A stretch of 64,000 nucleotides of DNA, taken from assembly GCA_963840035.1 (NCBI GenBank), contig CAWIXE010000002.1, positions 1,344,001 through 1,408,000 of the forward strand, written 5' to 3'. The position numbers and the translations under genes are program-made. Under the pieces are notes generated by a model that saw nothing but the letters and a program-made list of their open reading frames with translations, was not told the origin of the DNA and searched no databases. Shown here piece by piece: positions 1-14,133 of the stretch (position 1 is the first letter of the stretch; the number at the start of each line of letters is the position of its first letter). This DNA comes from a candidate division FCPU426 bacterium (GTDB lineage Bacteria > Oederibacteriota > PGYV01 > Palsa-1178).

Positions 1-440
1 AAATTCCTCTTTTGTTCCTTATACATTTTATTATAATGCTCATCCGTGGATTCGCGTTTTGTTTTAATGGCGCTGTCCACCTTTTCAGCCACATCTTTCA
101 TGTCAAAAGGCTTGATGATGTATTCGACAACACCGTTCCTTATGGCGTCAATGGCGTTTTGCAGTTCCGGGTAGGCTGTCATGAAAATAACAGGCACTTT
201 TTTATTATTTAATTTCAGGAGTTTAACAAGGGCTACGCCGTCCATTTTATCCATGCGTATGTCGGAAATAATCACATCAAAATCCTCTTTTTCAGCCAAA
301 AAAGCCGCGTCTGCGCCGTTTGACGCCTGCTTTACGAAGAAACCTTTTTTCTCAAAAAACATAATAAGCGCTTCCCTTATGGAATACTCGTCATCAACAA
401 CAAGTATCTTCTTTTGCGTGTCGGCGGCTGCTTCTTTCAT
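1..440 (-). CDS. Response regulator (receiver domain), partial; runs off window start
   Basis: Not in the ORF track; translated by hand from ATG at 440: MKEAAADTQKKILVVDDEYSIRE...FDVIISDIRMDKMDG...VIFMTAY...YIIKPF (DD, phospho-Asp, T and KP receiver motifs). GAGG SD upstream. Confidence 0.9.
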   Translation of the reverse strand, partial: MKEAAADTQKKILVVDDEYSIREALIMFFEKKGFFVKQASNGADAAFLAEKEDFDVIISDIRMDKMDGVALVKLLKLNNKKVPVIFMTAYPELQNAIDAIRNGVVEYIIKPFDMKDVAEKVDSAIKTKRESTDEHYNKMYKEQKRN

Positions 441-509
441 CAAAACCTCATCATGTGAGCCAGAAATAAGCCCGGATTTGCGGTGCACACTTTTATGCGG
501 CGCGCCTTA

Positions 510-761
510 TTAGTTTTCCGTATTTTTGTTGTACTTTTTTAGCAATTCAGAGTATTTCCCGAGCATTTCCTCGTACCTGTTAACTATGCTTAAATGAACG
601 TCCAGGAGTTTTCTGTCGCTGTGGTCCTGCAGCATGCTGCGGAAAAATTCCGATGTATTCTTACCTTCTTTGCGCGCCAGAAGTTCAGCCTGTTTTTTTT
701 CATCCCTGTTAACCCTGATCAGTATCTTTTTTTCCTTTTTCATTTTGCCTTTTTCTCTCAT
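510..761 (-). CDS. Ribbon-helix-helix (CopG/MobC-like) DNA-binding protein
   Basis: KKILIRVNRDEKKQAELLARKEGKNTSEFFRSML fits the RHH strand-helix-G-helix pattern. AGGGGAG SD favours ATG at 761 over the track start at 809. Confidence 0.65.
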   Translation of the reverse strand: MREKGKMKKEKKILIRVNRDEKKQAELLARKEGKNTSEFFRSMLQDHSDRKLLDVHLSIVNRYEEMLGKYSELLKKYNKNTEN

Positions 762-800
762 GTTTACACTCCCCTGTTTGTCATTGTAGGTCTTACTGTT

Positions 801-829
801 TTTATACACCCTTTATTTACAAAAGTCAA
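801..829 (-). promoter_or_regulatory. sigma70-type promoter for the RHH gene
   Basis: TTGACT-17 nt-TATAAA on the minus strand, overlapping the radical SAM stop codon. Confidence 0.55.
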
Positions 830-2214
830 TTTTTATTTGTTTTCTTTCTGGCGTTTATGCCGTTGACATACGCTTTCCTCACTCCCAGGTTCCACATAAG
901 CGCGATCACGGCCGTTGAAAAGGAGCGCGTCGACAAAAGCGTCCTGAAAAACCTCCCCCATACCGCCATAAGCGGCAGCGTCAGGACATTCTTAACCCCG
1001 TACACGATGTTGACAAGCTCTTCCTCTGAAAGGCTGTCATGGCTGTAGACAACATTCGAAAAATTATATTTCGACCAGTCTCCCGGATACGAGGCTTTTG
1101 TTATCCTCCCTTCAGATATAAGCCTGTCATACAGTTTTGTCCCGGGAAACGGCGTTAAGTGCGTCAGCTGAAATGCGTCCACTCCCATTTTATTTATGAA
1201 CTCCGGAAGTGTTTTTATTGTTTTCCGGCTGTCAAATGGGTATCCCACCATAAACGAACCCAGCACAGCGATACCGTGGCTGTGTATCCTGTTAATAAGC
1301 TCCTCATATCTTTTGAGAAGGTTAAGGTTGGTGCCCTTATTCATGGCCTTAAGGTTGTCCGGATCCACGCTTTCAAAACCCACAAGCATCATCCTGCATC
1401 CGCTTTTGTACATAGCTTTGAGTACTCTGTCATCCTCGCCTACATTTATGGAACACTGGCAGAACCAGTCTTTTTTTATGCCCTCTTTCACTATCCTCTC
1501 AAAAAGGTCCACTGCGCGCGCCTTTTGTTCCGCCGTGCGCCCCACAATGTTATCGTCATAGAAAAAAACATGTTTCTGTTTTACCTCTTTGAGCTCGCTG
1601 ATTATCTCATCTATCGGCCTGAGCCGGTATTTAAACCCGTTAAAAATGGTAACAGTACAGAAGTCACAATTCATGGGGCATCCTCTCGATGTTTGTACCG
1701 CGCCCCAAAAATATTTATCGCTGAAAATGCCGTTCGGGAAGGATCCTATTTTCACATCCTCGGCTTTTTTTTCCTGCCTGTATACCCTGCCCAGCGCGCC
1801 TGCCCTGGCATCTTCCAGCAGTTTTTCCCAGACTCCTTCCGCTTCGCCGACAACCACGCTGTCACAGTAACCCAGCGCCTCGTCCGGAAAAAAAGAAACA
1901 TGGATGCCGCCCATGACAACAGGAATCCCATCATCTTTAAGTTTTTCCGCTATCTCATAAGCGCGGGTTACTGTCGATGTAAAAGCAGTGATGCCGGCAA
2001 GGTCAATCTTTCCCGCGGACAAAATTTTTTCCTCGAAATTTTCAAAATTCTCGTCTATTACGACCACCTCAATGTCCGGCGGCGTAAGCTTTGCCAGGAC
2101 TCCCAGCGACATTGGCTTGCATTTCGTAAACGAAGTGGTAGCCAGCCCGCGCTGCGCGTTTACCGGGTTTACAAGCAGAATCCTTTTTAATTTATCCATT
2201 GGCCGCGCCGTCAT
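826..2214 (-). CDS. Cobalamin-binding radical SAM protein
   Basis: N-terminal B12-binding domain (VVMGGIHVS...VVVGEAE), TSRGCPMNCDFC CxxxCxxC motif, FFYDDN, VGFES, TPFPGT. Confidence 0.9.
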   Translation of the reverse strand: MTARPMDKLKRILLVNPVNAQRGLATTSFTKCKPMSLGVLAKLTPPDIEVVVIDENFENFEEKILSAGKIDLAGITAFTSTVTRAYEIAEKLKDDGIPVVMGGIHVSFFPDEALGYCDSVVVGEAEGVWEKLLEDARAGALGRVYRQEKKAEDVKIGSFPNGIFSDKYFWGAVQTSRGCPMNCDFCTVTIFNGFKYRLRPIDEIISELKEVKQKHVFFYDDNIVGRTAEQKARAVDLFERIVKEGIKKDWFCQCSINVGEDDRVLKAMYKSGCRMMLVGFESVDPDNLKAMNKGTNLNLLKRYEELINRIHSHGIAVLGSFMVGYPFDSRKTIKTLPEFINKMGVDAFQLTHLTPFPGTKLYDRLISEGRITKASYPGDWSKYNFSNVVYSHDSLSEEELVNIVYGVKNVLTLPLMAVWGRFFRTLLSTRSFSTAVIALMWNLGVRKAYVNGINARKKTNKN

Positions 2215-4310
2215 TCATTCTGCGCCGGAAATAAAACCGTAAAAACACATCCTCCGGCCGGCAAATTTTCCGCTCTGATAAACCCATTATGCGCCTCCAG
2301 TATGTTTTTTGATATCGCCAGTCCCAGCCCCGTGCCGTCAGCTTTTGTGGAAAAGAACGGTTCGTATATTTTTTCAAGCACAACAGGATCTATCCCCTGC
2401 CCGTGGTCTCGCACCCCGACAAAAACGTATTTTTTTCCGAACAACACCTCCGTGCCGGATGAGAATTCGATGTCGCCTCCGTCCGGCATTGCCTGTACCG
2501 CATTCATAATTATATTCAGCAGCACCTGTTTTACCTGCTCTTCGTCTATTTTTACGCGCGGTATTGTTTCCATTTTATTTGTAACGCGTATTTTCCTGTC
2601 CCTGAAAGTGAGTTTCATAAACTCCGCCACATTATCCATGGTTTTAATCAGGTCCGCATCCTTAAGTTTTATCGCCGCCGAATGGCTGAGCGCAAGCAGG
2701 TTATTGGTGAGTTTTTCAAGCCTTTTAAATTCGTCCGGAGCAATCTCCAGGAATTTATCTATGGCAGCCGTATTGCTTCTGTCATCCTTTGCCATCTGCA
2801 GGAAACCGCTCAAACCGGTTATGGGGTTCCTTATTTCATGCGCCACGGTGGCCGACATTTGCCCAAGCATGGCAAGCCTTTCGGAGTGCATCAGCTGTTC
2901 ATAAAGAAGTATGTTCTCAATCACAACTGTCGCCTGGGACGCTATATTTTCTATCCAGTGTATCTCCTCCCTGCGGAAGGTGGATTTGTTAAGTTTCTCG
3001 CCTATTATCCAGACCCCTTTTAACTCGCCGTTTAAATGCAGCGGAACGCACAGCTCCGCGTCATATTTTTTCAGCGTGAAGAGGACCTCATTTACATCGA
3101 TGTCCATATACTCGTTTTTCGGGGCGAAATAATATGCAACATCGTCCTCGATTTTTTTATAATAAACGGTTTCTTTTCTGTCCTTAAAATACCTGATTAA
3201 CGGATGCTTTTCCGGCAGGCAGGACCCGTCGCGCGTCCAGTCAGGATAAGGAAGGAAACACGTTTTTTCCGCGTTCCAGAAAAATATGACCGAATTTTTC
3301 AGTTTGAGGACCCTCACTATATATTCGGTTATCTTTTCAAAAAGCGGGGCATAATTCTTTACAAACCTGATCTTAAGCAGTATCTGCTGGAGCAGCACCT
3401 GATAGTCATAGTGCGATATAAAAAAGGCCTTCCTTGTCACCCTGTCGAGCATTTTCAGCGTCGGGTCCATGCCGAGCGTGACAAAAAGCGTTATTATGAA
3501 AAAGGCGAAGACCTTATACGGCATGCCTTCCAGCTTCGTAAAAATCAGCTCATTTGCCATGACATATATTATAACGACCAGCCACGCGTTAAACGCGTAC
3601 ATTAGTGTCTTCTGGAGCAGCTCCCTGATATTAAGGAGGTTATATGTAAGTATCGAATAAGTAATGAGGGTAAAAAATACAAGGACGCCGATTCCGGCCA
3701 TCGGAAAGATATTAAAACCGAAGATGTTTAGGATGTTCGTGATCCCGCCCAGAAAACCCATGGCAGTTCCCAGGGCCAGGTACTGTATCTGTTTTTTCTC
3801 CTGCGCAAGGATGCCCCTGGAAAGATATTTCCTGATCAGCATATAATTGCCCAACACGACGCAGGAAATCAGTATGAATACAAATATCATGTATATTATA
3901 TCCGGCTGTGCGACAAAGCCAAGCCTGCCTTTCTGAATCATGCCCTTAAAGCCTATGCCCGACACGTTCATAACGCCCGCGAAAAGAGCCAGCCCGAGAA
4001 GCGCCTTTTCAGCCAGTATTAATCTCCCCGAATACTTTGTAAGCAGCCTCACAAAAAGCAGCATCGCCACAGGCAGGAGCAGTATGGCCGGCCTGATAAT
4101 CCTTGAGACCATGTTTGCCTCTTCCATGCTGTGCGCGATGCGCAGCAGGTAAAGGTCAAGCTGCCAGAGGGCCACAAGCAGGTAAAAAAATGCGGCCGCG
4201 AGGTTCAGCTTGCTCCCTCTCTCTTTAAGCGCCGTTACAACCGCCAGTACAAATACTCCCACGCACGAAATTATTACCTGTGCCTGATACGCGTCAAAAC
4301 CCTGGTTCAT
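2211..4310 (-). CDS. Sensor histidine kinase with N-terminal multi-TM (HisKA_7TM-like) region, GAF-like domain, HisKA and HATPase
   Basis: About 8-9 hydrophobic helices; LCVPL..GELKGVWIIGEK GAF segment; H-box VAHEIRNP; N-box NIIMNAVQA; G boxes DHGQGI, FFSTK, GTGLGL. Confidence 0.9.
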   Translation of the reverse strand: MNQGFDAYQAQVIISCVGVFVLAVVTALKERGSKLNLAAAFFYLLVALWQLDLYLLRIAHSMEEANMVSRIIRPAILLLPVAMLLFVRLLTKYSGRLILAEKALLGLALFAGVMNVSGIGFKGMIQKGRLGFVAQPDIIYMIFVFILISCVVLGNYMLIRKYLSRGILAQEKKQIQYLALGTAMGFLGGITNILNIFGFNIFPMAGIGVLVFFTLITYSILTYNLLNIRELLQKTLMYAFNAWLVVIIYVMANELIFTKLEGMPYKVFAFFIITLFVTLGMDPTLKMLDRVTRKAFFISHYDYQVLLQQILLKIRFVKNYAPLFEKITEYIVRVLKLKNSVIFFWNAEKTCFLPYPDWTRDGSCLPEKHPLIRYFKDRKETVYYKKIEDDVAYYFAPKNEYMDIDVNEVLFTLKKYDAELCVPLHLNGELKGVWIIGEKLNKSTFRREEIHWIENIASQATVVIENILLYEQLMHSERLAMLGQMSATVAHEIRNPITGLSGFLQMAKDDRSNTAAIDKFLEIAPDEFKRLEKLTNNLLALSHSAAIKLKDADLIKTMDNVAEFMKLTFRDRKIRVTNKMETIPRVKIDEEQVKQVLLNIIMNAVQAMPDGGDIEFSSGTEVLFGKKYVFVGVRDHGQGIDPVVLEKIYEPFFSTKADGTGLGLAISKNILEAHNGFIRAENLPAGGCVFTVLFPAQNE

Positions 4311-4311
4311 T

Positions 4312-5049
4312 TCAGCCCTTTCCTTTTTTTAGCGCGATGAAGTCGTCAAAACCCCTGTACATTGTCTTATGAGCCAGGAGCCTGTAGCCGTTTTTTTTCA
4401 GCAACTGAATTATATCAGAAACCGGCGTAACCCCGTACATTTTTCTGTGGACCCTCGATATCAGCAGGTTAATGATACCCACCCTGAAGAGCCTCATAAA
4501 ATTTAAAGCAAGCCCGAGGACGCCATTTTCTTTTATTTCCATTGCGAACAGGCTCCCCACAAGCACAGGCCTGTTATGCGATATTACAAGCATCCCGCCG
4601 GGCTTTAACACCCGGTCAAACTCCATGACAGTCCGTTTTTTATCATCCAGCATAAAAAGCGCGTGAATGCTCGCAACCGAGTCAAATGAGCAGCTTTGAT
4701 AAGGAAGCCTGCGGTTTAGATCCCCCTCCATTATATCAGCCAGCCTTTTCAAGTCAGGTTTCTTAGATAATTTTTTGCGGAAACGGCCGAGCATGGCGCG
4801 GGAAATATCAAGGCAATTTAAGGTATGCCCTTTTTCAAGAAGCCTCATCGAAAGCTCTCCTGTCCCGCATCCGGCGTCAAATATCCGTTTTATTCCCCTG
4901 CCCGGAGCGGTCCATCGCACAGCTTCATCGATTACTTCCCTGTATGGCTTATAATAACGCGCGAGGTCGTCATAAGCTCCCGCATAAAGCCGCCACATCG
5001 CGTCTTCAAATTTACCGGTTAATTCCCCGCCAGCCATCAGTGCCTCCAT
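4312..5049 (-). CDS. Class I SAM-dependent methyltransferase
   Basis: IFDAGCGTG motif I, LDIS, SFDSV, RVLKPGG. Confidence 0.9.
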   Translation of the reverse strand: MEALMAGGELTGKFEDAMWRLYAGAYDDLARYYKPYREVIDEAVRWTAPGRGIKRIFDAGCGTGELSMRLLEKGHTLNCLDISRAMLGRFRKKLSKKPDLKRLADIMEGDLNRRLPYQSCSFDSVASIHALFMLDDKKRTVMEFDRVLKPGGMLVISHNRPVLVGSLFAMEIKENGVLGLALNFMRLFRVGIINLLISRVHRKMYGVTPVSDIIQLLKKNGYRLLAHKTMYRGFDDFIALKKGKG

Positions 5050-5065
5050 ATCAAAAACCGTTTTT

Positions 5066-6310
5066 TTAGAATACTCTCAGAATAAGGCTGGCGTTGTTTC
5101 CGCCAAAACCAAAGGAATTTATCAGGGCTACGGATATTTTTTTCCTTATTGACTCATTTGGCACGTAGTCCAGGTCGCAATCCGGGTCTTCCACTTCATA
5201 ATTAATGGTCGGCGGTATGTATCCGTTAAATCCGGCGAGGAGCGTGGCCGCTGTCTGGAACCCTCCCGAAACCCCCAGTGGATGTCCAACCATGGATTTT
5301 ATCGAAGAAATTTTTATTTTCTCCGAATGCCCGTTAAAGACCTTCTTTATGGCCCTGGTCTCCCTGATGTCGGATACAAGCGACGAACTTCCGTGCGCGC
5401 TTATATAATCGACTTCGTCATAGGCAATCCCCGCGTCCCTTACAGCTTCCGCTATGGTCCTGGCCGCTTCCCCGCCTGTATCGTCCATCTTATACATCGA
5501 CAACGCTTCCGAAGTATTACCGTAACCGATTACTTCGGCATAAATCTTCGCGTTCCTTTTTTTTGCCGAATCAAGGTTTTCCATCATGAACATGGCCGCG
5601 CCTTCGCTTAATATATAGCCATCCCTGTTTTTATCAAAAGGCCTGCTTGCCTTGCCGGGATCCTCATTTCTTTTAGATAGTGACCTTGAAGCGCAAAATG
5701 CGCCTATGATCGAAGGAGTAATAGGAGCCTCCGCGCCGCCGCATAATACCATATCCCTTTTCCCATATTTAATAAGTTCGTAAGTGTGGCCCAGTGCGTT
5801 AAGCGTCGATGAACACCCTGTGGAAATTGTAGTAGCCCGTCCTTTTATTCCCATTTCCACTGACAATAACGCTGCTGCCGCATTTGGCAAAGCGCCTAAA
5901 ACTGTAAAAGGGCTCATCCTTCCTGGCCCTTTTTCATGGAGAATCCTTATCTGCTCCTCAATTATCTCAAGGGCGTTTATACTTACACCTACGACAATAT
6001 CAGCAGAAGAAAGACAATCGCTTTTTACAGCAAGTCCGGAGTCTTTTACCGCTTCCTTCGCGGCGCAAACAGCCAGCTGCGAAAATCTCGGCAGCCTTTT
6101 GACTTCGCCTTTCGCGAAGTGGTCTTCGGGGTTAAAATTTTTAACCTCGCCCGCTATGGTGGATGAAAATCCGGCGGTATCAAATGCGGTTATCTGGCCG
6201 ACCCCGCTTTTCCCGTTTACAAGGGAACGCCAAAATTCCTCCTTGCAATTGCCGTTAGGAGCAATAATCCCGAAGCCTGTAATGACTGCCCGATTATTAG
6301 TATAGCTTAT
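5066..6310 (-). CDS. Beta-ketoacyl-ACP synthase II family (FabF/KS-alpha-like) condensing enzyme; probable ATA start
   Basis: The frame stays open upstream of the track start (5917) with the FabF N-terminus RAVITGFGIIAPNG...FW..L..GKSG. Cys (STGCSS), His (SAHGSS) and His (KSMVGH) triad, NSFGFGG. 414 aa from ATA at 6310. Confidence 0.85.
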   Translation of the reverse strand: MSYTNNRAVITGFGIIAPNGNCKEEFWRSLVNGKSGVGQITAFDTAGFSSTIAGEVKNFNPEDHFAKGEVKRLPRFSQLAVCAAKEAVKDSGLAVKSDCLSSADIVVGVSINALEIIEEQIRILHEKGPGRMSPFTVLGALPNAAAALLSVEMGIKGRATTISTGCSSTLNALGHTYELIKYGKRDMVLCGGAEAPITPSIIGAFCASRSLSKRNEDPGKASRPFDKNRDGYILSEGAAMFMMENLDSAKKRNAKIYAEVIGYGNTSEALSMYKMDDTGGEAARTIAEAVRDAGIAYDEVDYISAHGSSSLVSDIRETRAIKKVFNGHSEKIKISSIKSMVGHPLGVSGGFQTAATLLAGFNGYIPPTINYEVEDPDCDLDYVPNESIRKKISVALINSFGFGGNNASLILRVF

Positions 6311-6318
6311 GAGACATC

Positions 6319-6361
6319 CCTCCTTTCTCTTTCATTATATCTTTTCGCATTTCCGTGTCAA
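6319..6361 (-). promoter_or_regulatory. Consensus sigma70 promoter and SD of the ketosynthase operon
   Basis: TTGACA-16 nt-TATAAT (6361-6334), then AAGGAGG (6325-6319). Confidence 0.75.
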
Positions 6362-6444
6362 GAATAAATACCACATTGTCTATACAACAGCACATACAAT
6401 ATTTTTACAGAAAAATGAAAAGTATTTTCTTCTTCGCGGTTTTT

Positions 6445-8718: not shown

Positions 8719-10305
8719 ATGAAAAAAGCCGCATTGTTATCAATCATTCTAATACTTTTAAGTTTTAAAGCATTTGCCGCCCCCGGCGTTTACTGGGGTG
8801 CCTTTATCGGAGACAACACATCAGCTACCGCGGCGCAGAAATTCGAAGAACTCACCGGCAAAAAACTAGCCTCTGTCATGTGGTTTATTGACTGGAACAC
8901 AGATTTCCCTCTGCCGCTTTGCACCGTCCTATATAAAAACGGCTACATACCTAACATTACCTGGGAACCATGGATTTTTACGGATAAAACCGCCATCAAC
9001 CTGGATAAAATAATATCCGGCCAGTTTGATGAATATATTTCCAATTTTGCACGTTCGGTAAAGGCCTACGGCAGCCCTCTTTTGCTCAGGGTTGGCCACG
9101 AATTCAACGGCGACTGGTATCCCTGGTGCGTTGCCAATAACGGCAAGGACCCTGAAAAGTTTAAAAAAGCGTGGATTCACATACATGATATTTTCACAAA
9201 AGAAAACGCCTTAAACGCGCAGTGGGTCTGGTGCCCGAACGCCGGGAGCGCCATAAACGCGCAGTGGAACGACCCCCTGCTTGCTTATCCCGGAGACTCA
9301 TACGTCGACTGGGTCGGCATTGACGGGTATAATTTCGGCACTTATCAGAGCTGGAGCTCATGGCAGGGTTTTGATGAAATCTTTTCGCCCATGTACGGAA
9401 AACTTTCAAAAAAGATAAAGAACAAGCCTTTTATAATCGGCGAGTTTGCGTGCGCGGATAAAGGCGGCGACAAGGCAGCCTGGATTTCCGGGCTTGAAAA
9501 TTCCCTTAAAAAATTCCCCATGGTCAGGGCTGTAACATGGTTTAACACAAACAAAGAAATGGACTGGCGCGTTGACTCCTCGCCCGAAACGCTCGCGGCT
9601 TTTAAAAAAACAATTAAATCCGGATATTTCCTCTCCTCGCCTGAAGGGCTTGCCTCGCTTGCGGAGAAAACCGCTCCTGCCTCAGGCGCAGCACCGCAGG
9701 TAAAAAACACGGCAGCGGTTTCCGACCCATACATTGCCGGGCAGGTCAAGGATATCATCATTGACGGCGAGTATAAGGAAAACATCCCCTATCCCGCGGC
9801 TCAGATTAACTCCGGTGACGCCGATTTCTCCGGAAAAATCAATGTCGGTTTCGACGCTCAGAGCGTATATATTTACGCGGACATTAACGACAAAACACCC
9901 GGGGTAAACAGCGGAAAAGGCGAGAATATAAATACCGGCGACTGCATTATATTGTGCTTAAATTCAAACCCTGCGGACAAATCAGGGCGCGCGGCATTTG
10001 GCGCCGATGACTATGTGATAGGTATCAAGGCCGGCGACACCATCGAAACCTGGAACTGGACCTCAAAAGGCCCTCTGCAAAATCCCGTCGCTTTTTTCAG
10101 AAAAAAAACAGGCGGGTATGTGATCGAGGCTATTATTCCCTGGTATAATTTTAATATCGGGTGCAGCTGCCAGCTGAAGAACAAACCGGTTTGTTTCGAT
10201 CTGGCAATCAATGACGACAGCGGGAAACAGATACGGTTTAGCGGCGGGGACGATATTACAAAGAACCCATCAGGCTGGGGCACGGCTGTTTTTTCAACAA
10301 AATAA
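8719..10305 (+). CDS. Secreted GH26 glycoside hydrolase with C-terminal CBM9-like sugar-binding domain
   Basis: Signal peptide (…KAFA), ITWEPW, RVGHEFNGDWYPW acid/base motif, YPGDSYVDWVGIDGYN, IIGEF nucleophile. C-terminal IIIDG..YIYADIND..GYVIEAIIPW..FDLAINDD pattern. Confidence 0.85.
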   Translation: MKKAALLSIILILLSFKAFAAPGVYWGAFIGDNTSATAAQKFEELTGKKLASVMWFIDWNTDFPLPLCTVLYKNGYIPNITWEPWIFTDKTAINLDKIISGQFDEYISNFARSVKAYGSPLLLRVGHEFNGDWYPWCVANNGKDPEKFKKAWIHIHDIFTKENALNAQWVWCPNAGSAINAQWNDPLLAYPGDSYVDWVGIDGYNFGTYQSWSSWQGFDEIFSPMYGKLSKKIKNKPFIIGEFACADKGGDKAAWISGLENSLKKFPMVRAVTWFNTNKEMDWRVDSSPETLAAFKKTIKSGYFLSSPEGLASLAEKTAPASGAAPQVKNTAAVSDPYIAGQVKDIIIDGEYKENIPYPAAQINSGDADFSGKINVGFDAQSVYIYADINDKTPGVNSGKGENINTGDCIILCLNSNPADKSGRAAFGADDYVIGIKAGDTIETWNWTSKGPLQNPVAFFRKKTGGYVIEAIIPWYNFNIGCSCQLKNKPVCFDLAINDDSGKQIRFSGGDDITKNPSGWGTAVFSTK

Positions 10306-10403: not shown

Positions 10404-12122
10404 TTAAACAAATCGTGAAATCTTTGTCAATACGTCTCCCGGTTTAATTATTTTCAGACAATTATAATGGCCATACCTGCATTCTTTTTTGAAACACGGC
10501 TGGCAATCCAGGTCCGCGTAAAATATCTCAGCCCTGGAATTAACCGGCCCGCCCCACCCGGGCGCAGTGGAACCGAATATTACAACCATGGGTATGCCAA
10601 ACGCGTCCGCGATATGCATGACTCCCGAATCATTTCCGATAAACAACCTTGCTTTTTTTGCCGCCGCGACGACCTCCTTTAAACCGGTTCCGCGCATGTC
10701 AACAAAGTTCCTGTGCCCTGTCACATCAGCCCCGAGGTCAAAACTTTTATCCTCTTCCAAACCCGTTACGCACACTTTTACATTTTTATGCTTCTTAAAT
10801 ATCCCTTTCATAAGCTCCGCGTAATTACTTATAGGCCACATTTTGGACGGCCCGAATTTGGCGAAAGGGGCTATTAAGACAAATTTGGAATTTTCAATTT
10901 TCAATTTACAATTTGGATCGGGGACAAGTTCCTGTTTTGCGTCGGAAAAATCAAGACTGTTATCCGCAAGGTACAGGAGTTTGCGGTATTCATCCGTGAC
11001 GTGTTCCCTTTTATGGGTTTTATCCGGGCTGTAAACCCTGTTTAAAAACAGGCGCCCCATATCAGAGGCGTAACCGCAGCGCGATTTTAACCCCGCGAGC
11101 CACAGGAAAGCGGACGATGAAAATGATGGCGAAAATGTGACTCCGGTGTCTATTTTCATTTCATATACTTTATGCGCCGCTTCCAGCGTTGAAATCAGCG
11201 ATTTTCTGTCATACTGGATGATCCTGTCAATATCAGGGTTGCCTTCAAGGACGGATTTGACCCCTCCGCCGGTAACCGCCACAACAACCTTTGGATAGTG
11301 CTTTTTTAATTCCTTCAGGAAGGATGTCATCATGACAGCGTCCCCTATCCAGTTCGGGGCGCGCAGGACGATCCCCGATGATTTCTTCGCCGCCTTTTTA
11401 TCAAGCCGCATCTTGGAAAATTTGACAAACTCCGAAAACCCGCTGTAAACACAGAGCACAAAACCCTGTTTCCCGTCCAAAAAACCGGCTTTTAAAAAAT
11501 ACATGCGGAAGAACTTCAAAAACGGCGCTGTCAGCATCCTCAAAAGAAGGAACGGCTTTTTCTTTTCCGCGGCCTGCATGGTGGTATACCTGTTTAATTT
11601 GTGGAAATACGAAACAGAGTCCTGGTAGGAATAGTGGTTCATTTTGCACTTAAGCCCGGCGGTTGAGCCTTTTATTTCCACGGATTCGTGGACCGGTTTT
11701 CCATTGAAACGGCCCTTCGCCCTTTTAAAAAGCCTTAGCTGAAAATCCTTATCCCAGCCGCAGTGTTTTATTTCCCTGCCCAGGAAATAATTGCCCCTTT
11801 TAATATAATACCCGTCGGCGGCGTCAGCCCGCTTTGCCGCGTTTAATATCTCTTCCTTTAACTCAGGCGTTATCTCCTCGTCAGCGTCAACGCTTAGGAC
11901 CCAGTCGTATTTTGAACGGTCAATGGCGTAATTTTTTACCTGGGAAAAACCTTCAAATTTAATTATATGGATTTTAGCCCCGAATTTTCGGGCTATTTTG
12001 AGGGTTGAATCATCCGATCCGGAATCCACGAGGACTATCTCATCGCAGAACGAAAGGCTTTTTAAGCACCTTTCAATGTTTTTTTCCTCATTGAAGGTTA
12101 CTACGTTTGCCGATATTTTCAT
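10404..12122 (-). CDS. Fusion of GT2 LPS glycosyltransferase (WaaE-like) and GT9 heptosyltransferase II (WaaF-like)
   Basis: N-half: TFNEEKNI, VDSGSDD, VDADE, VHES. C-half: RAPNWIGDAVM, GPSKMWP, GNDSGVMH, CQPCFKKEC. Confidence 0.88.
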   Translation of the reverse strand: MKISANVVTFNEEKNIERCLKSLSFCDEIVLVDSGSDDSTLKIARKFGAKIHIIKFEGFSQVKNYAIDRSKYDWVLSVDADEEITPELKEEILNAAKRADAADGYYIKRGNYFLGREIKHCGWDKDFQLRLFKRAKGRFNGKPVHESVEIKGSTAGLKCKMNHYSYQDSVSYFHKLNRYTTMQAAEKKKPFLLLRMLTAPFLKFFRMYFLKAGFLDGKQGFVLCVYSGFSEFVKFSKMRLDKKAAKKSSGIVLRAPNWIGDAVMMTSFLKELKKHYPKVVVAVTGGGVKSVLEGNPDIDRIIQYDRKSLISTLEAAHKVYEMKIDTGVTFSPSFSSSAFLWLAGLKSRCGYASDMGRLFLNRVYSPDKTHKREHVTDEYRKLLYLADNSLDFSDAKQELVPDPNCKLKIENSKFVLIAPFAKFGPSKMWPISNYAELMKGIFKKHKNVKVCVTGLEEDKSFDLGADVTGHRNFVDMRGTGLKEVVAAAKKARLFIGNDSGVMHIADAFGIPMVVIFGSTAPGWGGPVNSRAEIFYADLDCQPCFKKECRYGHYNCLKIIKPGDVLTKISRFV

Positions 12123-13177
12123 GCGCGCGTTTCTTGCGGTAGGTGCTGCTTTATTATTTCGGTAACTTTTGAGACCGGCACCGAATCGGCGTTTCCGTCC
12201 GTAGGGACTATGACTTCATTGCCCGGCCCGCTGGGTTTATTTACTTCAGGGTCCGTATCCCCCCAGATTGCCACAGTATTTGTAAAAGGTGCGAAAACGT
12301 GCATTAAATCATCCTCATTGCACACATAGCAGCAAAGGAACCTGGATATGGCGGCCATCTTCATGTACTCGTGCGTATCAACCATTATGGTCTTTTTCTT
12401 TGTGACCACGTCAAATTCATGGAGCCTGTCTTTTTCTTCCCTGTTCGAAAACGCCAGCACCTTGACGCCGTATTTATCCATGAGATTATTCGCAAGCTGG
12501 GCAAATTTGCTTATCGACCACCTTTTACCCTTATGCGCGACTGACGGATGGATGCCCACCAGGATATCATGGCTGCCAATCCCCTTGCGGGCAAGAAACT
12601 CTTTCGCGTTGGCTATGTCTTTTTCAGAGACAGAAAACTTGGGGGTAAAATCATATGAGTTCGCGCCGATAAACCTCACAAGGTTCAGGTATTTTATTAT
12701 CTTGTGCTGCGGCTGGTCAATGGTCCGCAGGGTAAGGTTATGGATGGCATTGTATAATACCTTTTCATTTTTATCCGCGTATGCCACCCTGGCCTTTGCC
12801 TTTGTAATAAGGGAAAGCACGACAGCCGTATACAGGTCGGAATTAAGGTTTATGATTATTTCAAACTTTGTGGAAAATACGGACATCATGGACTTGAAGG
12901 CTTCCACCGGATTGAGCGTTTTCATGACAAGCGCCCTGTCTATAAAGGAACATCCGGCAGCTATTTCCCTTAAATCGCCGGTTATTAAAGCAGTCAGTTT
13001 TCCTTCCGGGGGCAGGGCTTCTTTGAGCGCCGCGATGGCAGGCGTGGAAAGTATGAAGTCCTCCAGATTATAAGGCGCTACAACGAGTATGTTGGAAAAC
13101 TCGCGCAAATTGACCTGCTTCGCGTTCATTATTCTCTGGCGTTCTTTTGCCTTTACCGGATCAAATGGGACCGTCAT
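12119..13177 (-). CDS. GT9 family glycosyltransferase-like protein (divergent motifs)
   Basis: LEDFILSTPAI, VGIHPS..KRWS, TVAIWGDTDP; the usual NDSG.MH reads NEDDLMH. Confidence 0.75.
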   Translation of the reverse strand: MTVPFDPVKAKERQRIMNAKQVNLREFSNILVVAPYNLEDFILSTPAIAALKEALPPEGKLTALITGDLREIAAGCSFIDRALVMKTLNPVEAFKSMMSVFSTKFEIIINLNSDLYTAVVLSLITKAKARVAYADKNEKVLYNAIHNLTLRTIDQPQHKIIKYLNLVRFIGANSYDFTPKFSVSEKDIANAKEFLARKGIGSHDILVGIHPSVAHKGKRWSISKFAQLANNLMDKYGVKVLAFSNREEKDRLHEFDVVTKKKTIMVDTHEYMKMAAISRFLCCYVCNEDDLMHVFAPFTNTVAIWGDTDPEVNKPSGPGNEVIVPTDGNADSVPVSKVTEIIKQHLPQETRA

Positions 13178-14133
13178 TTACACCCCGCCAAGACTTTTTT
13201 TACACGCGCGTAAGCTTCCTGCGCGCTTATTGACTTTAAACACTCAAAGGTGCCTATGGGGCACTTCTTCCCGCCGTGCACGTGGCACGGCCTGCACAGA
13301 AGGCCCTTTTTTTCCAGTATATGAAAATCACTGCAGGTAATGAATCCGAAAGACCCCGATGTCGGACCTAAAAACACAACAGCCGGCACCCCTAAAAGCA
13401 CTGCCGCGTGCGCTGCCGCAGTATCATTGCCTATGAAAAGGCCGCTTTTTCCTATGGTTTTCACCATGCCTTTAAAATCGGTCTTCCCCACAAGGTCCTT
13501 AACATTATGTAATTTATGATAACCCATTTTTTCATAATTTTCAACTTCATCTTTTACGCCGGTTACGGATATACTTAAACGCTTATCCGAGGCAAGCATG
13601 GTAATAAGAGCGTCATAATGGGGCCATATCTTCATGGGCCATTTCGCGCCGAGATGGACCGCGATTGACCTTACTTTTCCGGACGGCGTTAACGGATTTC
13701 TGGCCTGCGCCTTAAGGCCGGGTATGACTTTCGCCGCCGCGAGTATATACCTGTCCGCCACGGGAATAAAACTCCCTCCGAGGAACCACTTGAACAGCAC
13801 TGACAAACGCCTTTTGACCGGGGATTTCGCGTATGAAATTTTCGCCGGCGATTTGATGAAAAGAGCCAGCAGTTTTGACCTTAAGACCGAGTGCAGATCT
13901 ATGACAGCGCCGTATCCTCCCGATGAAAGTTCCTTTGCCGCGGAAAAAAATTCCGCGGGAGTATTGAGTTTATATGACAGTACCTTTGAAGCGCCGGTCA
14001 TTTCAGCCTGCTCCCTGAACTTCTCCTTGGTAAGGAAGTGGACCGTATGCTTTAGTTTTTTTAACGCGTCAACCAGCCTGTGCGCGAGGAGTATATCACC
14101 GGCTGAAGAAAAACGTATCAATAGCACCTTCAT
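13174..14133 (-). CDS. GT9 family heptosyltransferase
   Basis: IRFSSAGDI, IDLH, GAKWPMKIWP, GNDTAAAH, FLGPT, CRPC.HG.KKCP. Confidence 0.88.
   Translation of the reverse strand: MKVLLIRFSSAGDILLAHRLVDALKKLKHTVHFLTKEKFREQAEMTGASKVLSYKLNTPAEFFSAAKELSSGGYGAVIDLHSVLRSKLLALFIKSPAKISYAKSPVKRRLSVLFKWFLGGSFIPVADRYILAAAKVIPGLKAQARNPLTPSGKVRSIAVHLGAKWPMKIWPHYDALITMLASDKRLSISVTGVKDEVENYEKMGYHKLHNVKDLVGKTDFKGMVKTIGKSGLFIGNDTAAAHAAVLLGVPAVVFLGPTSGSFGFITCSDFHILEKKGLLCRPCHVHGGKKCPIGTFECLKSISAQEAYARVKKVLAGCK

Follow-up and report, generated by a model that had tools for sequence, protein, structure and literature searches.

The stretch examined here, hereafter the window, comprises 64,000 nucleotides (nt) of contig CAWIXE010000002.1 (positions 1,344,001 to 1,408,000; assembly GCA_963840035.1) from a candidate division FCPU426 bacterium. 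At its left end six genes follow tilS on the minus strand (Table 1). They encode a FabF-like ketosynthase (KS), here called KS2, a class I S-adenosylmethionine (SAM) methyltransferase (MT), a sensor kinase with a seven-transmembrane (7TM) region and a GAF domain, a B12-binding radical SAM enzyme, a ribbon-helix-helix (RHH) protein and a protein with a receiver domain. An earlier note, made from the sequence alone, had read them as one cluster whose enzymes make a methylated acyl- or polyketide-like molecule that the kinase senses. The protein identities were matched by Pfam and NCBIfam models, except that the supposed response regulator proved to be a REC-HisKA-HATPase hybrid kinase and not a DNA-binding regulator. 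The promoter proposed before KS2 was borne out, and its position recurs in four family relatives. The distances between the six genes, from KS2 onwards, are 16, 1, -4, 64 and 69 nt, so the tight packing described for the KS, MT, kinase and radical SAM genes holds. The RHH and receiver genes, counted as members in the note, are adjacent to these but separable from them, with the two wide distances, a promoter-like site of their own and an occurrence free of the cassette in genome G011 (tilS-RHH-hybrid).

Table 1. Genes and sequence elements at the locus (positions are those of the window).
Feature	Position	Strand	Basis or remark
tilS	7890-6445	-	Precedes the cluster
Near-palindromic box TGTATAGACA	6377..6386	-	15 nt upstream of -35; candidate operator/activator site
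Sigma-70-type promoter TTGACA-16-TATAAT	6334..6361	-	12/12 consensus match; conserved in relatives
Shine-Dalgarno AGGAGG, 8-nt spacer, predicted start codon ATA	6308..6324 (ATA 6310-6308)	-	ATA/ATT/ATC in 5/5 family genomes
KS2, FabF-like beta-ketoacyl synthase, 414 aa, Cys166-His306-His343	5066..6310	-	PF00109/PF02801
Class I SAM methyltransferase, 245 aa, DAGCGTG motif	4312..5049	-	PF08241
HisKA_7TM-GAF-HisKA-HATPase sensor kinase, 699 aa, His491; PrsK-like architecture	2211..4310	-	PF16927
B12-binding radical SAM enzyme, 462 aa, CxxxCxxC at 179; accessory	826..2214	-	PF02310 + PF04055
Promoter-like TTGACT-17-TATAAA for RHH/REC-kinase; GTATA overlaps -10	801..829	-	Sequence + 4 family relatives
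Ribbon-helix-helix protein, 83 aa, NikA-like	510..761	-	PF21983
REC-HisKA-HATPase hybrid kinase, 5' part in window	1..440	-	Pfam + genome sequence

The conserved core of the cluster is the KS, the MT and the 7TM-GAF kinase. Of the 24 genomes of the order, 11 have KS2, and those same 11 have the MT. The sensor region of the kinase was detected in 10 of these 11, plus G006 at a contig edge; in the eleventh KS2 genome (G017) the contig ends before the kinase. G001 has no cassette at the tilS site, where tilS is directly followed by a gene for a large protein. Metagenome contigs were scanned with a KS motif, and the resulting 36 loci were grouped with the genome loci at 95% identity into 34 clusters, the choice resting solely on the KS sequence. 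Seven of the 34 end too early for the kinase to be judged. In 26 of the 27 assessable clusters a kinase lies downstream of the KS (one of the 26 is a 7TM fragment at a contig end, and another was scored by GAF/kinase similarity only), and the one kinase-negative cluster carries an IS200-like gene. Of the 34 clusters, 14 have a class I MT and 12 a membrane methylase of the ICMT/PEMT type, none having both; 26 contain B12 radical SAM enzymes of as many as four types, and no acyl carrier protein (ACP) gene was found in any of the 34. In distant KS loci a REC-sigma-54 activator gene lies upstream. A single-KS search of genome contigs returned 16 loci, of which 15 were housekeeping FabF of Gaiellales and one was a useful locus from Verrucomicrobia. 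One KS locus matches a protein labelled Elusimicrobia at 100% identity, and proteins of the KS clade labelled Nitrospirae and Omnitrophota exist. The co-occurrence of these genes in other genomes, which the earlier note had put forward as a check, is thus wide.

KS2 is not the genome's only FabF-type enzyme; had it been, and had it grouped with housekeeping FabF, this would by the note's own account have spoken against its proposal. The other beta-ketoacyl-ACP synthase II (KAS II) is 41% identical to KS2 and lies within a plsX-fabH-fabD-fabG-acpP-fabF operon, which also holds the one ACP found genome-wide. KS2 scored 467 bits against the KAS II subfamily model PRK07314 (cut-off 387) and 476.2 bits against TIGR03150, the housekeeping FabF model, under the cut-off of 493.75. 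It shares with FabF (Bacillus subtilis 4LS5, E = 3.7e-112) the fold, the intact Cys-His-His triad and Lys338. In a quick IQ-TREE run on 50 rows, 14 kinase-linked KSs fell outside the other 36 with a support of 97; by this phylogeny KS2 is a member of a clade separate from the acpP-linked FabFs and is not the housekeeping enzyme. The window KS and 47 of at least 120 matches, hand-picked on non-FabF motifs, were compared with 20 acpP-linked FabFs. Cys166 and Lys338 were invariant in all 48 clade members. The gate Phe of FabF was present in 1 of 48 versus 20 of 20 acpP-linked FabFs, position 352 was Gln in 48 of 48 versus Glu in 20 of 20, the His, Thr and Pro of FabF loop 2 were all substituted in the clade, and pocket position 110 was Ser or Ala where the acpP-linked FabFs have Gly. 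The clade also has HGSSS where FabF has HGTST; these columns are partly circular, since they were used for picking, and the other diagnostic columns are not. KS2 thus differs from FabF in its clade, in the lack of an acpP link, in its gate loops, in the HGSSS motif and Gln352, and in the predicted non-AUG start described below. The gate loops of KAS II control substrate entry and may, through the Phe, exclude beta-oxidised (beta-hydroxyacyl) chains (PMC7138838), and the pocket region altered here sets chain length (PMC13160055). KS2 is therefore likely a specialised enzyme, whose substrate we infer below. Among the KS matches, four proteins of 570-582 aa (P0100, P0117, P0134 and P0143) were KAS II-PilZ (PF07238) fusions with HGTST FabF-type motifs where read, and the KS2 signature is absent from them.

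It was found that KS2 has no usable ATG, GTG or TTG. The first such codon in its frame is codon 132, and starting there would delete a third of the fold. In the start column stands instead a codon of the AUH type (AUA, AUU or AUC) throughout the family: ATA in the window, ATT in G002, G003 and G007, and ATC in G005. Both the missing canonical start and the family-wide AUH codons are new in this analysis. Elsewhere the start column holds ATG (G009, G010, G014, L106 and L109) or GTG (L093), and in G008 an ATG stands one codon after it; the distant locus L114 again has ATA, with a longer spacer. Between the -10 box and the start codon, canonical in-frame starts are absent in four of the five family genomes, the exception being G007, in which an ATG 4 nt past the -10 box could serve a leaderless message. 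Initiation at AUA, AUC or AUU is 1-2% of that at AUG in Escherichia coli (10.1101/063800), and infC is known for its AUU start (PMC4447247). The infC gene of the window's genome (L084; G000:C2 about 504300-504908) also appears to start with ATT, in a GGAGG-8 nt-ATT layout. In infC, pcnB and ebpA, which start with AUU, a rare codon is joined to a good Shine-Dalgarno sequence, as is predicted for KS2, a combination that reduces the expression of an operon's leading gene (PMC4447247, 10.1101/063800); KS2 differs in that its family shows three AUH codons at a single site and that the gene encodes a biosynthetic enzyme. The AUH column behind a Shine-Dalgarno sequence points to a deliberately low expression of KS2, and an efficiency of 1-2% would suit an enzyme that makes a signal more than one that makes lipid in bulk.

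Two other accounts of the start were considered and rejected. A start at the out-of-frame ATG at 6317 followed by a frameshift fails because that ATG is absent in relatives. Lineage-wide use of AUH starts was dismissed on counts after GGAGG over 2063 open reading frames (ORFs), which were below background for ATT (24 found, 50.0 expected from background), ATC (24, 34.8) and ATA (48, 75.5), with ATG at 450 against 68.5. Gene callers truncate or mis-start KS2, so that a clone based on the annotation would give a dead enzyme. The RHH orthologue in L106 seemingly starts with ATA where the others have ATG. The genome also contains three identical frames of 353 codons (G000:C1:590845, C1:341325 and C2:829753) that lack an early canonical start and are probably a mobile element.

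The window MT has a conserved hydrophobic helix near residues 180-197, as judged from alignment and hydropathy. No named family scored above cut-off for it, an MT profile searched against PDB retrieved generic methyltransferases only, and Atlas yielded nothing beyond family names. The B12 radical SAM enzyme has the B12-binding and radical SAM domains and the CxxxCxxC motif expected of class B enzymes. All named radical SAM families stayed under cut-off, the best matches being lipid enzymes (HpnJ and ladderane-type), and the nearest solved sequence is AprD4, by its name not a methylase. Orthologues were found in 8 of the 24 genomes of the order and in none of the 7 other family genomes. Because it is absent from four near-complete (97-98%) family genomes that carry KS-MT-kinase-RHH-hybrid after tilS, the radical SAM enzyme is a dispensable accessory.

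The kinase scored 35.9 bits against PF16927 (cut-off 28.6) and, with its HisKA and HATPase domains, classifies as a HisKA_7TM kinase. It has 8 hydrophobic segments, and in its structure model (pLDDT, the predicted local distance difference test score, of 84.5) the GAF fold finds matches. A likeness of the 7TM part to class C G protein-coupled receptors was weak in Foldseek (E about 3e-3 to 7e-3) and was not used as evidence. In the open-access papers found to name HisKA_7TM, it appears only as a sensor family, with no ligand given. Upstream of the genome's four other HisKA_7TM proteins lie a PAS kinase, a pseudouridine synthase, an RND pump and a STAS protein, and a small-molecule enzyme stands directly upstream in none of the four.

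When 99 genomes of the phylum were searched with a kinase profile, 36 matching places turned up in 29 of them; 13 of these places are KS2 loci. Of the 23 that are not KS2-linked, 16 sister kinases were fetched, and a small-molecule enzyme lies directly upstream in 11 of these 16. In six loci this is a GNAT-fold protein outside any Pfam family, followed by an MT, a radical SAM enzyme or a ThiF-MT; the fold assignment rests on one modelled protein, to which the others are 29-48% identical. Two loci have a gene resembling a nonribosomal peptide synthetase (NRPS) with a fusion of phosphopantetheinyl transferase (PPTase) and methyltransferase, two have a radical SAM gene, and one has the order ICMT-radical SAM-ICMT-KS. 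The exchangeable enzymes before the kinase are the strongest, though indirect, argument for a pairing of synthase and receptor. As to the loci themselves, the GNAT-like proteins (L125:5955-6908 and orthologues in L126-L130; genomes G062, G064, G060, G054, G034 and G059) have about 320 aa, lack Pfam and NCBIfam matches and model as GNAT, and they stand in the conserved order REC-sigma54, REC, GNAT, variable tailoring enzyme, 7TM-GAF kinase. In L137:6746-14193 and L138:5085-12999 (G031 and G065) the NRPS-like gene and the PPTase-methyltransferase fusion come directly before a related 7TM kinase, the NRPS-like gene containing two AMP-binding stretches, a condensation, a carrier and a thioesterase part.

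The RHH protein and the REC-kinase hybrid are separable from the core. The RHH protein is 73-76% identical in relatives and has homologues in 15 of the 24 genomes, including cassette-free ones. The hybrid has 379 aa from ATG 440 and ends at G000:C2:1343302 (gene 1343302-1344440), 699 nt outside the window. It carries Asp60 and His153. Its G1 box, DTGNP, is degenerate, as are those of the orthologues L033, L034 and L037 (DRGDA, DKGDS and DRGDF), and the hybrid may therefore bind ATP in an atypical way. In all five family promoters (window and 4/4 relatives) exactly 15 nt separate the -35 element from an upstream box of the form [TC]GTATATACA, i.e. [TC]GTATA[TG]ACA; in G008 the spacing is 6 nt. 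TGTATA.ACA had 8 matches on one strand of the 3.46-Mb genome. GTATA also overlaps the RHH gene's own -10 element, and the RHH protein is a candidate binder of the box. No regulon could be derived from the box, as 29 intergenic one-mismatch sites have mixed neighbours. The box presumably resembles a site of the GntR/HutC type; no binder of that type was found in the genome. Two RHH paralogues were noticed (G000:C1:969836-970051 and C1:114858-115064), the first of which is broken by a stop or frameshift and has a TGTCTATACA box upstream.

The note had proposed looking for an ACP or acyltransferase gene to the left of the window, and none was found there in the genome sequence beyond the hybrid kinase gene, the sole ACP of the genome being that of the fab operon. 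As read from the sequence, a large secreted protein and then TonB/ExbBD-like genes follow the hybrid. On the other side, beyond tilS, the plus strand encodes a GH26 + CBM9 protein (window 8719-10305), and positions 10404-14133 hold genes judged by sequence to resemble lipopolysaccharide heptosyl- and glycosyltransferases.

Several described systems share parts of this arrangement. In Ralstonia phcBSRQ, whose signal is a methylated fatty-acid derivative, a methyltransferase, a sensor kinase and a receiver-kinase hybrid without a DNA-binding domain stand in that order (PMC8578825, PMC11960443). The same order was found in the window, with the radical SAM and RHH genes intervening. Unlike Phc, a dedicated KS leads the operon here, B12 radical SAM enzymes are optional, the MT has 245 aa and the kinase is of the 7TM-GAF type with His491 where PhcS has His230; the MT and kinase are set beside PhcB and PhcS by layout only. 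The pairing of a condensing enzyme with an O-methyltransferase is shared with BpsA-BpsB and DquA-DquB, in which a type III polyketide synthase (PKS) goes with an O-methyltransferase of the ICMT family, BpsB O-methylating the alkylpyrones or resorcinols of the condensing enzyme (PMC9827899). An ICMT/PEMT-family partner occurs in 12 of the 34 KS clusters, and the window methylase is of class I; the condensing enzyme here is of the KAS II/FabF type and not a type III PKS, and BpsAB has no linked receptor. In layout the locus resembles phcBSR, and in its combination of enzymes it resembles BpsAB; by the criteria applied it is a member of neither.

A ketosynthase makes the signal in PpyS-PluR and DarB, as proposed here (PMC4578411), and the earlier note had leaned on these examples. 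The analogy picks the wrong KS class, however: PpyS is a FabH-derived Cys-His-Asn enzyme with a LuxR receptor (PMC4578411), while KS2 has Cys-His-His, scored 25.5 bits against the DarB model (cut-off 550) and is linked to a membrane kinase, and no LuxR-type receptor was found by Pfam among the six cluster proteins. PpyS and LuxI homologues have been found by computation beside kinases in genomes of the candidate phyla radiation (PMC7567580), an arrangement that shares the placing of a synthase gene next to a kinase gene. PrsK/PrsR (TIGR02916) shares the architecture of multiple transmembrane segments, GAF and kinase, as well as sigma-54 activators by way of the distant loci, and acyl-synthase genes have been reported near PEP-CTERM loci (PMC9850573, PMC7293339); the kinase here reached 135.5 bits of a cut-off of 300 in a full-length match to the PrsK model, and no PrsR-type activator is at the locus, the genome as a whole having 7 sigma-54 activators. 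In the open-access literature, outside which subscription papers lie, no description was found of a FabF-type KS with a HisKA_7TM kinase.

Taken together, a module that makes and senses an O-methylated acyl lipid is the best reading of the locus, and one that we somewhat favour. The earlier proposal survives in this form, backed by the interchangeable enzymes before the kinase family and shorn of the dispensable radical SAM enzyme and the separable RHH/REC pair. KS2 would borrow acyl- and malonyl-ACP from the single, housekeeping ACP pool, and its altered gate and pocket would allow it to elongate a chain not accepted by FabF, in the simplest case a 3-oxoacyl chain to a triketide. The triketide could cyclise off the ACP as an alkylpyrone, for which no thioesterase would be needed and which would also account for a dedicated KS; we place an alkylpyrone, for which BpsAB offers a precedent (PMC9827899), slightly ahead of a PhcB-like methyl ester (PMC8578825). 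The methylase would cap a free oxygen of this product, made in low amounts with the AUA/AUU/AUC start throttling the first enzyme, and optional B12 radical SAM enzymes would add C-methyl groups to give lineage-specific variants. The product would act on the 7TM membrane domain of the kinase and phosphate would pass to receiver proteins, the output being relayed by the REC-kinase hybrid at this locus and by sigma-54 activators in distant lineages.

A number of observations weigh against such a module. Within the KS2 clade, His306 is retained in 46 of 48 members, two lacking this first His, and at the His343 column 28 members have His, 18 Gln and 2 Asn; since a catalytic His is replaced in part of the clade, condensation may not be its conserved function. 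The one clade member that keeps the gate Phe is the window KS itself. The MT/ICMT split tracks KS divergence (at least 58% versus at most 55% identity) and so probably reflects one replacement event, not 26. Five of the 16 sister kinases have upstream genes for unknown proteins (three) or unrelated genes (two), and the 7TM part tracks the KS no better than the kinase core does (Spearman 0.74 for the 7TM part versus 0.78 for the kinase core, 16 loci). P0036 and P0044, close relatives in the KS2 clade, are called with Met at the start column, as protein calls, and no exporter was found within the cassette. The catalytic substitutions suit an alternative that seems rather unlikely, in which KS2 is a KS-like acyl-accepting partner (transacylating or acyl-ACP-sensing) and the kinase reads the status of fatty-acid synthesis or a membrane-retained modified lipid, nothing diffusible being made. 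All 48 members retain Cys166, whereas 20 have another residue for His343 and 2 for His306, and at the Verrucomicrobia locus a His-less KS lies directly before the kinase with no methylase. Low expression would also suit a regulatory subunit, and BpsAB-type products have been proposed as membrane modifiers (PMC9827899). Yet the window KS and its order retain Cys-His-His and Lys338, 26 of 34 clusters retain a methylase, and the same slot before sister kinases holds GNAT or NRPS-like synthases.

That last observation also bears on an improbable explanation, a regulated tailoring operon in which the KS, MT and radical SAM enzyme modify envelope lipids and the co-transcribed kinase controls them or neighbouring surface genes on an unrelated cue, as proposed for PrsK/PEP-CTERM. 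The PrsK match, full-length though sub-threshold, the lipid enzymes among the radical SAM matches, every one below cut-off, and the null co-variation result would agree with it, but the kinase stays while the enzymes before it swap between unrelated folds, a start codon of a predicted 1-2% efficiency is ill-suited to bulk lipid remodelling, and ACP and transporter are absent from the cassette. Finally, the missing canonical start could mean that the KS gene is decaying, its start codon lost in the family and the cluster on its way out. Loss of the radical SAM gene in four family genomes and of the cassette at the tilS site in G001 would fit, and so would the state of the MT gene, which in G010 (L038:10000-11996) is interrupted by some 1.1 kb of inserted DNA whose opposite strand carries transposase-like ORFs, and in G007 consists of two ORFs. 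We regard decay as very improbable, because KS2 has an open 414-codon frame with all catalytic residues and 69-72% identity over five family genomes, because three different AUH codons occur with a strong Shine-Dalgarno sequence and promoter retained, and because infC of the genome has the matching GGAGG-8 nt-ATT layout.

Our verdict is that the locus represents a real, conserved and undescribed variant of synthase-plus-receptor signalling. A wider reading, possible though doubtful, is that uncultured bacteria use a widespread, modular chemical language whose receptors are the HisKA_7TM-GAF kinases of this subfamily, with a swappable acyl-carrier-dependent synthase (FabF-derived KS, GNAT acyltransferase or NRPS-like enzyme) and methylases in front; this locus would then be its ketosynthase dialect, with the first FabF-type signal synthase, an O-methyl alkylpyrone and an AUA/AUU/AUC start sensitive to initiation factor 3 (IF3). 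The two-enzyme core is small enough for expression in E. coli, which makes the question of the HisKA_7TM ligand directly testable. If the proposal is true, a FabF-type enzyme would join the known signal synthases, and a sensor family without a known signal is given a testable idea of its ligand.

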